64,000 nucleotides of DNA from Escherichia coli (GCF_041886205.1 NZ_CP169029.1); one strand, 5' to 3'. Positions 55,643 through 60,133 are shown, counted from the stretch's first letter. The notes: generated by a model from the sequence alone, not told the origin. Numbers and translations: made by a program.

Positions 55643-56515
55643 TCAGAAGAAAATCCAGTTCCATACAGCGCGGGCAACAGAGACCACCGTGTCACGGACG
55701 GCACGCAGAACCGTACGGGCAACAGAGGCAACACAGACGCTCTCCGCCGTGTCAAATATCCGGTCCACCGCACCGGTAAACTGTTCACGGGCCTGAGCGC
55801 GGACAGATTCCGTGCGCAGCTCGTCCTGCAGGCGGGTCATCAGGGGACTGGCGGCATGGTCGGGAAGCGCTGTCATTAGCGCACTGACCAGCGTATCCAG
55901 CTCCCAGCCGGTGCGGGCCGATACGGCAACAACCGGATGTACGGGCCGGAACAGACGGAATACCGCATCTGTTTTTTCGCGAATGTTCTGTGCCTGTGCG
56001 GGAGAAGGCTGAATGCCGGCCATATCCCATTCATGGCAGGGCTCCGTTTTGTCGGCCTGCGTCACCACAAACAGCACCTGCTGATGTCCCCGGTGCAGGA
56101 TGTGTCGCCAGAAATACTCATCCACAGACAGGGCACGGTCATCGGCTTTAATCAGCCACAGTACCAGGTCAAGTTCAGGCAGAATGTCACGGTACAGGGC
56201 CTCATACTCTGCATCCCTGTCCCGGCTCTCGCCCACCCCGGGCAGGTCAGTGATAACCATGCTGTGACCGTGGCCACTCAGACGGAAGCGCCGTACTTCC
56301 CGGGTGCCGGCGTGAACATCACTGACCGGGGTGACCTCCCCCTGAAACAGTGCATTACAGAGTGAGGATTTACCGGCCCCGCTTTTACCCATAATGCCAA
56401 TCACGGGTTCGTGACGGGTGAGTTTGCGCAGATGTTCCAGGATGTGACGGGAAAGTGAGTAAGGCAGGGAGGAGAGCGGTTTTTCAATTGCCTCAATGGC
56501 ATCAGACGGATTCAT
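55643..56515 (-). CDS. yeeP: YeeP/YkfA/YfjP-family GTPase
   Basis: Walker A GKSGAGKSS and DLPG motif; trimmed to MNPSDAIEAIEKPL (start codon checked); upstream of Ag43 as in CP4-44. Confidence 0.8.
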   Translation of the reverse strand: MNPSDAIEAIEKPLSSLPYSLSRHILEHLRKLTRHEPVIGIMGKSGAGKSSLCNALFQGEVTPVSDVHAGTREVRRFRLSGHGHSMVITDLPGVGESRDRDAEYEALYRDILPELDLVLWLIKADDRALSVDEYFWRHILHRGHQQVLFVVTQADKTEPCHEWDMAGIQPSPAQAQNIREKTDAVFRLFRPVHPVVAVSARTGWELDTLVSALMTALPDHAASPLMTRLQDELRTESVRAQAREQFTGAVDRIFDTAESVCVASVARTVLRAVRDTVVSVARAVWNWIFF

Positions 56516-56870
56516 ACATGTATTCCCGGTGAAAAAAGACAAAACCCCGCGCACCGGAAAGGTGGCGGGGGATTCACAACGATAATATCTGTCTGAAATT
56601 ATTTGGAATGCAGGTATATGCAGCTAATTTGTATCGGCTCATTAGTACAGAACTAAACCTCATCTGACAGTCCGCTCTATGTCATAAGCGGTCCTTATAT
56701 ACACTAAGGTAGAATTGTCTTCTGGGGCGGGGTTGTCCAAATAAAATCCTAAAGTATCTAATTTATACGTAGTGATTCAGTATCATGTGCTACGTGTTGA
56801 ATTATAAATTTAGTTTAAATTGGTTGTTTAGATATCTGCATGATAACTATCAGACCATTGTGGAGTATTT

Positions 56871-57389
56871 ATGACGATTCTTGAAGAAATGGAAGCAGAA
56901 GCATGGCATATCCTAACAACCATCTATACGTATCAGCGGTTGATGGAAGGCCTTACTAATAGCAGTACAAGATATGAGCTTGCCAATCAGTTGGTAGCCC
57001 TCAATGCATTGTTGGAAATGTTGGTGATCCGTTTAGCGCGTCTTGCGGATAAAAGGAAAGATGTGAGATCTGTATCAATGTTTTTGAAACGCGGCTCGTA
57101 TTCTGCTTCACCAGAGGCTGTGAAATTGGCAGCTGAAAAGTTCCTTGCACTCACAGAACCAGTATTAAAGATTAGGCATGAGCAGATTGCACATATGAAG
57201 CCCGGCACACTCAGTAGCTTCGAGCCTCGAGAACTTCCAAATGAAGCTCTGAGAGCAACTGAGGCTCTAATCGATCTCATTGACATTGCCAGAGGTCACC
57301 CTCAGTCTTACACATACCGAGTTGGCTCACAGGAGCCTGCCATTAATTTGAGAGCTTCAGTAGAGACTAGCGAACTAGTTAAAATCTAA
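56871..57389 (+). CDS. Hypothetical protein, 172 aa; possible HEPN-like (R-x5-H motif)
   Basis: ATG at 56871 preceded by GGAG; visibly AT-rich; helix-like composition; RHEQIAH motif near residue 100. Confidence 0.55.
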   Translation: MTILEEMEAEAWHILTTIYTYQRLMEGLTNSSTRYELANQLVALNALLEMLVIRLARLADKRKDVRSVSMFLKRGSYSASPEAVKLAAEKFLALTEPVLKIRHEQIAHMKPGTLSSFEPRELPNEALRATEALIDLIDIARGHPQSYTYRVGSQEPAINLRASVETSELVKI

Positions 57390-57411
57390 TAATTCACTCA
57401 AGTCTATGCTA

Positions 57412-57439
57412 CTTTGCCGAGTTGCTTTACTCGGCAAAG
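57412..57439. terminator. Bidirectional hairpin between the convergent orphan genes
   Basis: CTTTGCCGAG-TTGCTTTA-CTCGGCAAAG, perfect 10-bp stem. Confidence 0.5.
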
Positions 57440-57525
57440 TAATTAGCTCCCCGTTAATAACAGATCCGGCAGCCCCTCAACCTTTTTGCTTAAGTGAATA
57501 TATTTTCACAATATTTCCTACTGCT

Positions 57526-58905
57526 TCAGTCATAAAATTTATTTTTGCCTTTTGACGTCATGAGAAGGAAATATGAAGGGTGACTCTTTATTTCTGAAGA
57601 GTGGCTTGTTATACTAAAAACCTCTTTTAGAATCGTAAAGGCTCCTGTAGCCAACGACACTGGATTTGGTGCCCCAATAAAACCTATCAATGATGGCGCA
57701 ATGTTAAGAAAAAGTTCTTTATTACTTTTCCGCTTATAGGTCTGTATTTTTTGCTCAATATCGGTCAATCCTTCATCCCATATGCGCTCGACAAAATGCT
57801 GATTTATCAGCTGCCTCTTATATGGGTCACTTTCTGCTTCTATGTCATACGCAGCTTCACGTAGCACAGAGCGGAAGGCATTAAAACTCGATTCGTAGTC
57901 AGTTCTAATTTTGTAGAGTTCACTTGGAGTAAGCCCCTCTAGAAATGGAACGTCAATAGAGAGTTTAACCCTCTGAACTTCATTCCTTTGATCCAGTTTA
58001 CGAAGAATTTCTCCATGAAATGGGCAATATGCGCCCAGGGACGCTCTGCATGAATGCGCTTGGTTAAGATCAGTAATAAGGTTTTTATAATGAAAGAGAA
58101 CTGTACGATTTTTTGCTCCCTGCACCCACCGTTCATAACTTTTTTTTCCGCTATGCTTTCCCATGACAATTTCCATAGACATGGTACCATCATCATTATC
58201 AATGGCATTATTTATATGTTGATACATATATCCATTTGTATACGAGCTTTCGCAGCCTTTAATTTTCAACATAATTTCATTCGTTAAAACATTTCTGTTT
58301 AACAACCGAATTTTATTTGTGTTGCCCAGACGTTCTATATTCTGTACGGATAGTCTACTTTCATACAGACGGGCAATATTAGGGGGGAGATATCGAAATA
58401 GGAAATTAGTATCAGAGTTATCTTCTAAAATTCCATTAGCTCTCTCCGAATCTTTAATAGAGGATTCTCTTCGTACAAAAACGATAAACTCTCCACGGAT
58501 AAGATCAAAGTTTTCTTTAGCAAACCTGATAAACCTAGCAATTTCCTTCCTGAGATGTTCAACCTTCTCTTTGCTATCGCTTTCAATAAATTTTTCAACT
58601 ACGTTTTCTGATAGATTTACCCTGTATCGTAGGCTCAATGAATATAGAACGTCATCAAGAATGACTCTGTCCATTGAAAACAAACCACTCTTATACCTTT
58701 CAATATTACGATTCCCCGCCATGTAAACATTCAGCCGGGACTCCTGTACAGAATTTGTTTGTTCGATAATGAATGAATCTATCCTTTTATTATATTCAGC
58801 TAATTCAACTAGCAATTCGTTCAATCCGATATTTTCATATTCCTGTTCTAAAAGTCGATCAACCCAAAAAAGGCTTTCTGTGAGCGCATAGAGGTTGTTG
58901 TACAT
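57526..58905 (-). CDS. Hypothetical protein, 459 aa, unknown function
   Basis: Long ORF in the most AT-rich stretch of the window; K/E/N/I-rich; no Walker A or nuclease motif recognised. Confidence 0.7.
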   Translation of the reverse strand: MYNNLYALTESLFWVDRLLEQEYENIGLNELLVELAEYNKRIDSFIIEQTNSVQESRLNVYMAGNRNIERYKSGLFSMDRVILDDVLYSLSLRYRVNLSENVVEKFIESDSKEKVEHLRKEIARFIRFAKENFDLIRGEFIVFVRRESSIKDSERANGILEDNSDTNFLFRYLPPNIARLYESRLSVQNIERLGNTNKIRLLNRNVLTNEIMLKIKGCESSYTNGYMYQHINNAIDNDDGTMSMEIVMGKHSGKKSYERWVQGAKNRTVLFHYKNLITDLNQAHSCRASLGAYCPFHGEILRKLDQRNEVQRVKLSIDVPFLEGLTPSELYKIRTDYESSFNAFRSVLREAAYDIEAESDPYKRQLINQHFVERIWDEGLTDIEQKIQTYKRKSNKELFLNIAPSLIGFIGAPNPVSLATGAFTILKEVFSITSHSSEIKSHPSYFLLMTSKGKNKFYD

Positions 58906-59917
58906 ACTAGCTCCTTTTTACCAAGCTTCAGTACTGTGTTCTCAAGATTACTCAGTGGTTTTCACACAGAGTGCACTCTCATTTTACATTTAAATGTACT
59001 TCCTAGCATCCTGCTGTTAGTGCCGGATTACAGCACTTATCAACTGTATATTTAGAAAACAAACTGCGCATAATCCTAGTGAGTTGTTATGTCCGCTCCT
59101 CGCTCAAAGCAGACCATTCGCTCAGTTAACGCATCAGTGTCGTGCTAAAAGTAGACGTGGTTAACAACAATGTGAGTTAATCAACGGAGAGCAGGTCAAC
59201 TCTAACCTGTATCAAAAAAACAAATGTGTCACAAAGATGCCGCATGCCTTAATTTGAGTATAATTGAGACGGAAGTAGACGGTTTATGGCTAAATATTGT
59301 TGATATATAGCTATTTGAAGAGTTGTAGCGCAAGTGTATAGCCCAAACTAATAACGCTACCCCTTACCTTTGACGCCTCTTATCAAAGAGCTGCGATGAT
59401 GCACAGCCCGCACGAGGCAATATTCGCACAAGAATCAGGTTCAGAAATAACCTGCTCTGGCATGGTGGGGAGAGTATCACTGATCAGGCTTTCGTTAAGA
59501 TGCGGCGGGATGAGGCCGTGTTGCGTGAGTTGCAGCAGTACAAGATCGCCCGCAGAGGGTAAGCTACAGCGCGAGATCCTAGGTTTCTATCAGGGATTCG
59601 GCAAAGCGGGCGCAGTTGTCGACCAAGGCGGTGAAATCTATAGTGGCATTATAAGGGAACGAACAATAGATCGAGTAAATCGCAGTCAGGGACAAGGATT
59701 GTAGTCTATAGAGAAGTCTCCTGTAACGGTTTTCAGGAGGCTAATTCCGACGCCTGATTTTGCAGGCGCGGAGGGAGAGGATACTGCGACCATTAATCCG
59801 CCACAAAGCATTTACGTGCATAAATCACGCAGTCAGATCCGACTCTCACTGTAGTTCTTGAACCTGATACCACATTTAGCTAATTTAGCTAACTTATCCA
59901 GTATACCAGTGGTTGCC

Positions 59918-60094
59918 ATGAATATGAATGAAGACGAGATTTATCGTCATATCCGGCAGGCACTTTCCAGTGCGCCGCGTAACCAGTACACCGTCGAGCT
60001 GCACCTGCAAATGATTAAATATGCCGACGAACTGGAACACATTACGGCAAAAGCCTTTTGCGAAGGCACCGGTCTGAATACCGATCTGCTGTAA
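59918..60094 (+). CDS. Small hypothetical ORF, 58 aa, directly upstream of hsdM
   Basis: ATG at 59918 (track used upstream TTG at 59858); MNMNEDEIYRHIRQALSSAPRNQYTVELHLQMIKYADELEHITAKAFCEGTGLNTDLL. Confidence 0.35.
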   Translation: MNMNEDEIYRHIRQALSSAPRNQYTVELHLQMIKYADELEHITAKAFCEGTGLNTDLL

Positions 60095-60133
60095 CCGACT
60101 TACGGCACATTATCGCGCAAAACGAGATATTTA

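Follow-up and report, generated by a model that had tools for sequence, protein, structure and literature searches.

Two separately mobile single-gene modules, an AbiU2-type HEPN gene and a gene of an undescribed family, as candidate anti-phage genes in a variable slot of an Escherichia coli CP4-44-type island

Introduction

Anantharaman et al. (2013, PMC3710099) describe HEPN domains as having an Rx4-6H motif where helix 3 ends and the loop to helix 4 starts, a polar residue (N, D or H) after the arginine, and an insert that separates helices 2 and 3. One described branch is the HEPN_AbiU2 family (Pfam PF18734), which includes AbiU2 of the Lactococcus lactis AbiU system and has been noted next to restriction-modification (R-M) genes. 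A protein with an AbiU2 HEPN domain encoded on an integron cassette of Vibrio mimicus, HNPBCG_15845, has been reported to confer resistance to T4 and T7; cloning succeeded only together with another cassette, and this combination was the one assayed (bioRxiv 10.64898/2026.03.17.712381). A second point of reference is the pif locus of plasmid F, where pifC is followed by pifA, the gene of a 741-aa KAP-family P-loop NTPase. Published work links PifA to T7 exclusion and to membrane permeability lesions upon T7 infection, and it has also been argued that phage exclusion is not its primary role. The present analysis concerns a 2.4-kb AT-rich block (about 56692-59085) within a 64,000-nt stretch of Escherichia coli DNA (GCF_041886205.1 NZ_CP169029.1), hereafter the window, whose positions are counted from its first letter. 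The block carries two open reading frames (ORFs): ORF A, which encodes an AbiU2-type HEPN protein, and ORF B, some of whose plasmid homologues occupy the position of pifA.

Comparison with sister islands identifies the block as a variable cargo slot in a serW-integrated island of the CP4-44 type. The slot holds two unrelated, separately mobile single-gene modules. Each of them is most likely an abortive-infection-type anti-phage gene, a reading to which we give somewhat better than even chances. The defence role of either gene rests on association, namely on the company that the two families keep in other genomes, plasmids and prophages.

The two genes and their modules

ORF A (56871..57389, plus strand) encodes 172 aa and ORF B (57526..58905, minus strand) encodes 459 aa. 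Both are intact, start with ATG and converge. ORF A is preceded by the Shine-Dalgarno sequence GGAG, 8 nt before the start codon, and ORF B by AAGGAG at a distance of 6 nt. They were delimited by ORF calling and characterised with Pfam PF18734 and an AlphaFold2 (AF2) model in the case of ORF A, and with profile searches and genomic contexts in the case of ORF B. The GC profile and the ORF calls agree with the original prediction, made from the sequence alone, of an AT-rich block with two convergent genes. Its description of them as orphans was wrong, since ORF A has 88 homologous clusters at 90% identity and ORF B has 335 representatives at 50% identity. With these homologues, nearly all of them full length in the case of ORF B, both ORFs are real genes and not chance ORFs.

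The region between the two genes contains a hairpin with a perfect 13-bp stem and a 6-nt loop (57410-57422 / 57429-57441). For the 146-nt intergenic RNA, the folding z-score is -4.7; no shuffled sequence out of 200 folds as well. The perfect hairpin that had been predicted here is thus real, with a stem longer and stronger than the 10 bp first given. It lacks a U-tract and was not called as an intrinsic terminator, so its interpretation as a canonical terminator was dropped. An interpretation as an attC site was also abandoned, the GTTRRRY core not being seen by eye. The hairpin is kept together with ORF A in Citrobacter and forms the 3' end of the ORF A module, probably as a transcript-end or stabilising structure.

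Upstream of ORF A, a 29-aa ORF (56785-56874, plus strand) overlaps the ORF A start codon by an ATGA, and its own ATG is lost in the Citrobacter copy of the module. It is probably spurious. Its candidacy as an antitoxin of ORF A was rejected, because the Citrobacter comparison reveals no conservation. ORF A has no co-oriented neighbour ORF of at least 50 aa; 316 nt of non-coding DNA lie upstream and the convergent gene lies downstream.

The boundaries of the two modules, each of which moves as a unit, follow from DNA comparisons. Module A (56692..57478, plus strand) comprises ORF A, about 180 nt upstream of it and the 3' hairpin; over about 56690-57478, it is collinear with a locus of Citrobacter braakii that has no ORF B. 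Module B (57479..58932, minus strand) comprises ORF B with short flanks. Exactly this span recurs in E. coli L26 and E24377A, where a lambdoid prophage carries it with 91% nucleotide identity but no ORF A; its place there is between the replication genes and Q. The L26-type prophage carrying module B is also present on 3 IMG/VR contigs.

Among 5,426 complete E. coli genomes, ORF A is found in 50 and ORF B in 56, 6 of which have ORF B only. The 50 shared cases count as one inheritance event, because all of them are the same island at 99% identity or more. In about 20 contexts sampled outside this island, the two genes were not found together. ORF A and ORF B are therefore independent, separately mobile and not a functional pair, and a two-gene A+B system was dropped as a candidate for want of co-occurrence outside the island. 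The original prediction spoke of a gene pair and a locus, which does not hold in the functional sense; its own caveat, that each gene may be a single-gene system independent of the other, is strongly supported by the separate contexts and the module boundaries.

In some of the island-bearing genomes, e.g. NZ_CP025856.1, NZ_LR882997.1 and NZ_CP128970.1, ORF B is covered to 84-96% or split in two, with its 5' end missing or interrupted. It appears that ORF B has been lost or disrupted in some lineages in which ORF A is still intact.

ORF A, a divergent HEPN_AbiU2 protein

By profile comparison, ORF A belongs to the HEPN_AbiU2 family. Residues 8-110 align with positions 9-135 of the 193 positions of the Pfam model, with an independent E-value (i-E) of 7.7e-5 and 22.7 bits. 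Of its relatives, 25/41 match the model at E<=1e-3 and 40/41 at E<=0.1, the best at 8e-7. Because the match is partial, ORF A is regarded as a divergent member or subfamily of this already described family. The HEPN-like character first suggested for the 172-aa protein is thus supported both by Pfam and by a four-helix model, and the suggestion that the locus was undescribed fails for ORF A while it stands for ORF B. Searches of PADLOC (E<=1), NCBIfam and PHROGs gave zero matches for ORF A, and a sequence-profile search of the PDB returned nothing useful.

The conservation of ORF A was judged from an alignment of 41 relatives with 37-81% identity. Invariant positions are R54, R57, L58, D60, R66, H108, M109, K110, D138, Y147 and S153. 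R102 and H103 (both at least 90%) as well as A107 are nearly invariant. The sequence RHEQIAH (R102-H108; 57174..57194, plus strand) therein is an Rx4-6H motif and the predicted active site, as indicated by its conservation and its position in the model. The AF2 model is confident, with a predicted local distance difference test (pLDDT) score of 89.8, and folds into four long helices, of which helices 2 and 3 are separated by a short inserted one. The motif occupies the C-terminal end of helix 3 (81-106) and runs into the following loop. ORF A thus fits the published description of HEPN motifs, including the polar residue (H103) after R102. The R-x5-H spacing noticed from the sequence alone is present, conserved and correctly placed in the fold. 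By analogy with the HEPN superfamily, ORF A is predicted to be a metal-independent RNase.

With lactococcal AbiU2, ORF A shares the family hidden Markov model (HMM), the Rx4-6H motif with its polar residue, and the placement of the motif in a four-helix bundle. Like other members of this family, it is found next to R-M genes. It differs from the AbiU system in being solo: judged by neighbourhood and curated models, ORF A has no AbiU1-like or Sel1 partner and no PADLOC Abi match. The relationship to HEPN-MNT toxins and to an integron-cassette HEPN protein (PDB 7ae2, 3jrt) is much more distant, with 6-8% identity. HEPN-MNT modules have an adjacent gene for a minimal nucleotidyltransferase (MNT) antitoxin; neither this nor any other antitoxin gene stands beside ORF A. 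The V. mimicus protein HNPBCG_15845 resembles ORF A in being a small single-ORF HEPN protein of the AbiU2 type, a likeness judged from the shared Pfam domain; it is carried as an autonomous cassette, as are relatives of ORF A in Marinobacter and Vibrio. As a compact solo HEPN protein, ORF A would be a tractable model for how such a protein is restrained and triggered without an antitoxin.

Relatives of ORF A sit in several kinds of mobile DNA. In Marinobacter, they are single cassettes bounded by attC-like TAAC...GCGTTA repeats. HEPN_AbiV and Imm32 cassettes, together with many domain-less genes, are further members of the integron-like chromosomal array of Marinobacter nauticus (L009:5400-14519). 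Vibrio vulnificus has two copies in cassette arrays. Another relative occurs in a lambdoid prophage, just after CII-O-P, and in Serratia one occupies the gpA/portal hotspot of a P2-like prophage. ORF A has no match on plasmids.

In the Serratia liquefaciens prophage (L012:5700-7549), the ORF A relative overlaps the stop codon of an upstream 433-aa DUF6602 gene. The N-terminus of the DUF6602 protein matches a PD-(D/E)xK nuclease model, and the Serratia pair may be a two-gene system of a HEPN protein and a nuclease, unlike the solo arrangement in E. coli. At the edge of a prophage/UmuDC region in Citrobacter braakii (L010:5172-6708), overlapping genes of 398 aa and 117 aa immediately precede the ORF A module; neither of them has a Pfam or PADLOC match.

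ORF B, a member of an undescribed family

ORF B has no counterpart in PADLOC, NCBIfam, PHROGs, Pfam or the PDB. Its only PADLOC match, Csm5 at E 0.012 (PADLOC-DB v2.0.0, 5,027 models), is taken as noise. Ten distant relatives gave no PADLOC match below E 0.01, and noise only elsewhere (CdiI_2 at 0.1). A profile built from 71 sequences has no match in the PDB either. These empty profile, PDB and PADLOC searches agree with the first impression that the 459-aa protein has no recognisable domain. The sole curated family with any signal is DUF6236 (PF19749), which 7/71 relatives match at E<=0.1 (best E 2.1e-3) and 0/71 at E<=1e-3. This signal is sub-threshold, the window protein itself is unmatched, and DUF6236 is itself uncharacterised. 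A literature search retrieved no paper on DUF6236 or on the protein accessions.

A word-indexed search found 26 close clusters in Enterobacterales. The 335 representatives of the family were recovered at E<=1e-3 by an exhaustive profile search, 97 of them at <=1e-10. Family members are mostly 440-480 aa long and align end to end. A Foldseek search of AFDB50 with ORF B returned unannotated family members only, all named 'Uncharacterized protein', from genera including Flavobacterium, Arcobacter, Sorangium, Pseudomonas, Vibrio, Sphingobacterium, Thermoanaerobacter and Micromonospora. The family spans Enterobacterales, Pseudomonas, Vibrio, Bacteroidota, Myxococcota, Firmicutes and Actinobacteria, and the named members of its clusters are all called 'hypothetical protein'. 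The ORF B family is thus undescribed. Its interest lies in this breadth, in its carriage on clinical plasmids and in its link to the pif locus.

Conservation was assessed in the 71 relatives, which share 15-79% identity. Y38 and D85 occur in 100% of them, and at position 334 every sequence has a basic residue (R in 69/71). W260, R345, R119 (basic or nearly always so), S11, P320, F341 and F344 are at least 94% conserved, and K130 is counted among the conserved residues of the N-terminal and central region. D85 (codon 58651..58653, minus strand), the sole invariant acidic residue, follows a predicted beta-strand (81-84), at its end, in the consensus ...IxxDPLF. A PIN-like reading of the 'VILDD' strand was dropped, there being one invariant acidic residue only. 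Neither a P-loop nor a His/Cys dyad stands out in the family alignment, and nothing else in it resembles a catalytic signature.

The C-terminus is hydrophobic. Residues 397-428 (57622..57717, minus strand) form a Gly/Ala/Ser-rich segment that is 0% charged in all 71 sequences, with hydropathy peaks at 399-407 and 418-423. Basic positions flank it on both sides, and a conserved NPxYFLWK tail comes after it. The segment is the most hydrophobic part of the family: the Kyte-Doolittle (KD) hydropathy over 19 residues (KD19) reaches at least 1.6 in the C-terminal part of 32/71 sequences vs 5/71 elsewhere in the protein. With moderate confidence, the segment is predicted to be a membrane anchor or insertion hairpin. 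In comparison with effectors that have two transmembrane (TM) helices, such as SLATT-like proteins, it is shorter than two full TM helices would normally require; a single relative matches SLATT_1 at E 0.098.

Neighbourhoods of ORF B and the pif locus

Homologues of ORF B recur beside known defence genes. In the E. coli L26 lambdoid prophage, the homologue is directly beside a full-length PD-T4-3 gene (E 5.7e-138; L019:10753-11559). In Morganella, it occupies the P2 gpA/portal hotspot beside a gene for a PD-T4-6-type Ser/Thr kinase (E 2.6e-30; L004:9429-11033). The P2 gpA/portal position is described as an experimentally established anti-phage hotspot (PMC9122126). Distant members adjoin Eco57I/ResIII with McrBC and PemK; HNH with a KAP-NTPase and Schlafen; or a reverse transcriptase with Ogr/Delta and AbiJ. 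Relatives are also found on 78 plasmids, mostly conjugative IncF plasmids of Klebsiella, and on one K. pneumoniae plasmid the relative is two genes away from Ppl and P-loop NTPases. A Pectobacterium relative is solo, beside an insertion sequence (IS). An HNH gene (L019:11640-12875) and further neighbours have no PADLOC match. ORF A and ORF B resemble single-gene defence proteins such as PD-T4-3 and PD-T4-6 (described in Vassallo et al. 2022, PMC9519451) in genomic niche and in their single-gene, own-promoter architecture. Their sequences are unrelated to these systems (no PADLOC match).

On IncF plasmids of Cronobacter and Klebsiella, the ORF B homologue begins 10 nt past the pifC stop codon and has its own GAGG ribosome-binding site. 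The PifC encoded upstream of it is 85% identical to that of plasmid F, and the order resD/ccdAB-pifC-X is also that of plasmid F, where X is pifA. Plasmid homologues of ORF B hence take the exact position of pifA. Two further plasmids carry the gene of a 361-aa PifC homologue, again 10 nt upstream of an ORF B homologue. This PifC is only 36-37% identical to that of F, so the linkage of ORF B with pifC recurs across divergent pifC lineages. The four loci of this type (L016:5902-8374, L017:5902-8374, L022:3905-6374 and L024:3905-6374) encode ORF B homologues with 38-39% identity. In Rahnella, the order is pifC-pifA-B (L023:1519-6374; plasmid F comparison, L018:2446-5761). On about 1,300 plasmids, DNA similarity to pifC ends at its stop codon, which implies that the position after pifC is variable; 25 of these plasmids share the ORF B-type junction. 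An ORF B remnant downstream of pifA was looked for in plasmid F by tblastn and dropped, as there was no match. There is no pifC beside ORF B in the window, and the prophage copies of ORF B are likewise not in a pifC-downstream position. A literature search yielded nothing on a pifC-linked variable slot or on pifB.

The shared position does not reflect a shared sequence. PifA has 741 aa and a P-loop, whereas ORF B has 459 aa and no match to KAP_NTPase or P-loop models in Pfam, NCBIfam or PADLOC. A comparison of the 71-sequence profile with PifA likewise gave no sign of kinship (hhalign probability 0.2%). What both proteins have in common is membrane association, known or predicted. We propose, tentatively and at somewhat less than even chances, that ORF B founds a broad new family of abortive-infection proteins, each encoded by a single gene and of an unrecognised fold, which would act at the membrane via the C-terminal hairpin and serve as PifC-controlled replacements of, or additions to, PifA on IncF-type plasmids. 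If so, the pif locus would be a general, swappable cargo slot for phage defence rather than a single fixed system, and the 50-year-old 'phage inhibition' locus of F would be one case of a variable, repressor-controlled defence slot. Should ORF B be a defence protein, a widespread family would have been missed by current defence annotators. Its presence on clinically important IncF plasmids of Klebsiella and in E. coli O157:H7 lineages would then bear on phage therapy and on phage-mediated gene flow, e.g. by Stx phages.

Proposed mode of action and alternative explanations

If both genes are anti-phage genes of the abortive-infection type, ORF A would be expected, from the HEPN superfamily, to act as a homodimeric RNase through R102 and H108. 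It would lie dormant until a phage infects and would then cleave RNA of the host or the phage, leading to a stop of translation. ORF B may combine a cytoplasmic N-terminal and central sensing region (Y38, D85, R119, K130, W260, R334, R345) with the charge-free hydrophobic C-terminal hairpin, which, with its basic flanks, would compromise the inner membrane on infection. The outcome would be analogous to that of PifA, though the proteins are unrelated in sequence. A membrane effector is proposed for ORF B because of this hairpin and the placement of its homologues in the slot of PifA.

Several observations weigh against this interpretation. Neither protein matches any PADLOC model, and a tblastn search of 50,697 deposited phage genomes with both proteins gave no match; the prophage copies were found via bacterial genomes and IMG/VR. 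For ORF A, the Pfam score of 22.7 bits is modest, and generic helical bundles dominate the fold search, so that structure alone does not discriminate HEPN. No conserved small ORF adjoins ORF A, and a solo HEPN RNase would have to be kept non-toxic without an antitoxin. AbiU2 of L. lactis was described as a modulator of AbiU1 and not as an effector. For ORF B, the hydrophobic segment is only about 30 residues long and has a KD value of 1.3 in the window protein, so that membrane insertion is a prediction. The AF2 model of ORF B, built with 21 close sequences, is poor (pLDDT 59.5), and its C-terminal hydrophobic region is below 50. In some copies of the island, ORF B is truncated (84-87% coverage). 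Finally, the AT-rich composition hints at possible silencing by H-NS.

The alternative that survives best, although we consider it unlikely, is that one or both are accessory genes of mobile elements with functions other than defence. In that case ORF A might serve as an addiction toxin or a regulator of RNA processing, and ORF B as a PifC-controlled membrane protein with a role in entry exclusion, anti-defence or the killing of competitors in plasmid or prophage biology. The wholly associative nature of the defence evidence and the zero PADLOC matches are in keeping with this explanation. Besides defence genes, hotspots hold cargo for anti-defence, toxin-antitoxin and virulence functions, plasmid functions are also under PifC control, and the primary role of PifA is itself disputed. 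However, the neighbours are overwhelmingly defence genes across unrelated taxa and elements: PD-T4-3, the PD-T4-6-type kinase, McrBC and R-M, and further Ppl, KAP NTPase, Schlafen, AbiJ and DarTG. The established use of the P2 gpA/portal position for anti-phage genes (PMC9122126) and the anti-phage phenotype reported for an AbiU2-HEPN cassette also speak for defence.

It is very improbable that the block is decaying acquired DNA, with both ORFs as silent remnants that are functionless in this host. Its low GC content is typical of H-NS-silenced DNA, carriage is limited to just 50-56 of the 5,426 E. coli genomes, and several ORF B copies are truncated or interrupted. Matches to the promoter consensus in the region are no more frequent than expected from shuffled sequences. 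Against this stand the full-length ORFs with good Shine-Dalgarno sites and the 99-100% identity across O157:H7 and non-O157 lineages. In addition, length and motifs are conserved down to 15-40% identity, which implies purifying selection on both families.

Least likely of all is one two-component system, with ORF B as sensor or regulator of the HEPN effector ORF A, or a toxin-antitoxin-like pair: the genes adjoin and are always together within this island (50 genomes), many HEPN proteins act with a partner, and the Serratia relative of ORF A overlaps an upstream DUF6602/PD-DExK gene, but the 50 co-occurrences, at 99% identity or more, are one inherited island and not independent associations, each gene stands without the other wherever else the families were sampled, the two genes converge on a hairpin that is part of module A alone, ORF B relatives are on 78 plasmids where ORF A has no match, and the partners of ORF A relatives vary from locus to locus.

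The island and its variable slot

The GC content is 0.34-0.45 over about 56.4-59.4 kb, compared with 0.55-0.59 in the genes for the GTPase and Ag43 (Cah) on one side and 0.47-0.57 in hsdM on the other. The left backbone flank, outside the cargo, is the gene of a YeeP-like GTPase (55643..56554, minus strand), annotated as 'GTPase family protein' in an identical O157:H7 locus (L001). A conserved stretch 5' of this gene (56555..56691) is common to CP4-44-type islands: about 1,500 E. coli genomes match a query spanning 56555-59100 at its positions 1-63 to 1-143 only. From these DNA matches, the left edge of the slot is placed at about 56692. At its right end lies a junction segment peculiar to this version of the island (58933..59084), beyond which homology to the leader of a type I R-M/DarTG operon starts. 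With 58933-60133 as the query, this homology begins at query positions 151-168 in about 246 genomes. The leader (59085..60133, plus strand), assigned by genome matches and annotation, forms the right backbone flank and contains a helix-turn-helix (HTH)-like pseudogene at about 59924-60088. It is found, from about 59085, in 246 of the 5,426 E. coli genomes, most of which have neither ORF A nor ORF B.

The type I R-M genes hsdM and hsdS follow (60134..63921, plus strand; ORFs and the annotation of L001), hsdM at 60134-62572 and then hsdS at 62566-63921. Together with the GTPase gene, they are the flanking genes that had been named in the original prediction. The genes darT, darG and hsdR come just past the window end. 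The darT-darG genes sit between hsdS and hsdR (window 63934-64000 onward; L001:22380-27214), so that a toxin-antitoxin defence system is nested in the R-M operon. The same hsdS-darT-darG-hsdR nesting recurs in E2348/69 and strain E2.

E. coli O157:H7 and other strains, most of them bovine-associated, have a locus with 100% identity to the block, in which both genes carry the annotation 'hypothetical protein'. The left part of L001 shows an island at tRNA-Ser beside infA, with genes for CbtA/YeeU, antirestriction, patatin, RdcB, a dynamin-family protein, Cah and the YeeP-like GTPase. In its right part, ORF A, ORF B, hsdM-hsdS-darT-darG-hsdR and an M48 peptidase gene follow in this order. The setting is a conflict or defence island, as first supposed; it holds R-M, DarTG, antirestriction and CbtA genes. 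The genes for the dynamin-family, RdcB-family and patatin-like phospholipase proteins form one co-oriented block upstream of Cah (window 46000-52300; L001:6403-10756).

The slot between the GTPase gene and the R-M genes is called variable because sister islands hold other cargo at the same place. Strain E2 has a ParA-family gene and hypothetical genes of 168 aa and 231 aa, and E2348/69 has IS elements and a pair of small hypothetical genes (128 and 122 aa). This slot of CP4-44-type islands is another site in which to look for new defence systems. The unannotated genes of the sister islands in the slot equivalent to 56692-59085 of the window (L033:3461-5492 and L032:4869-5693) are further candidates from the same hotspot.

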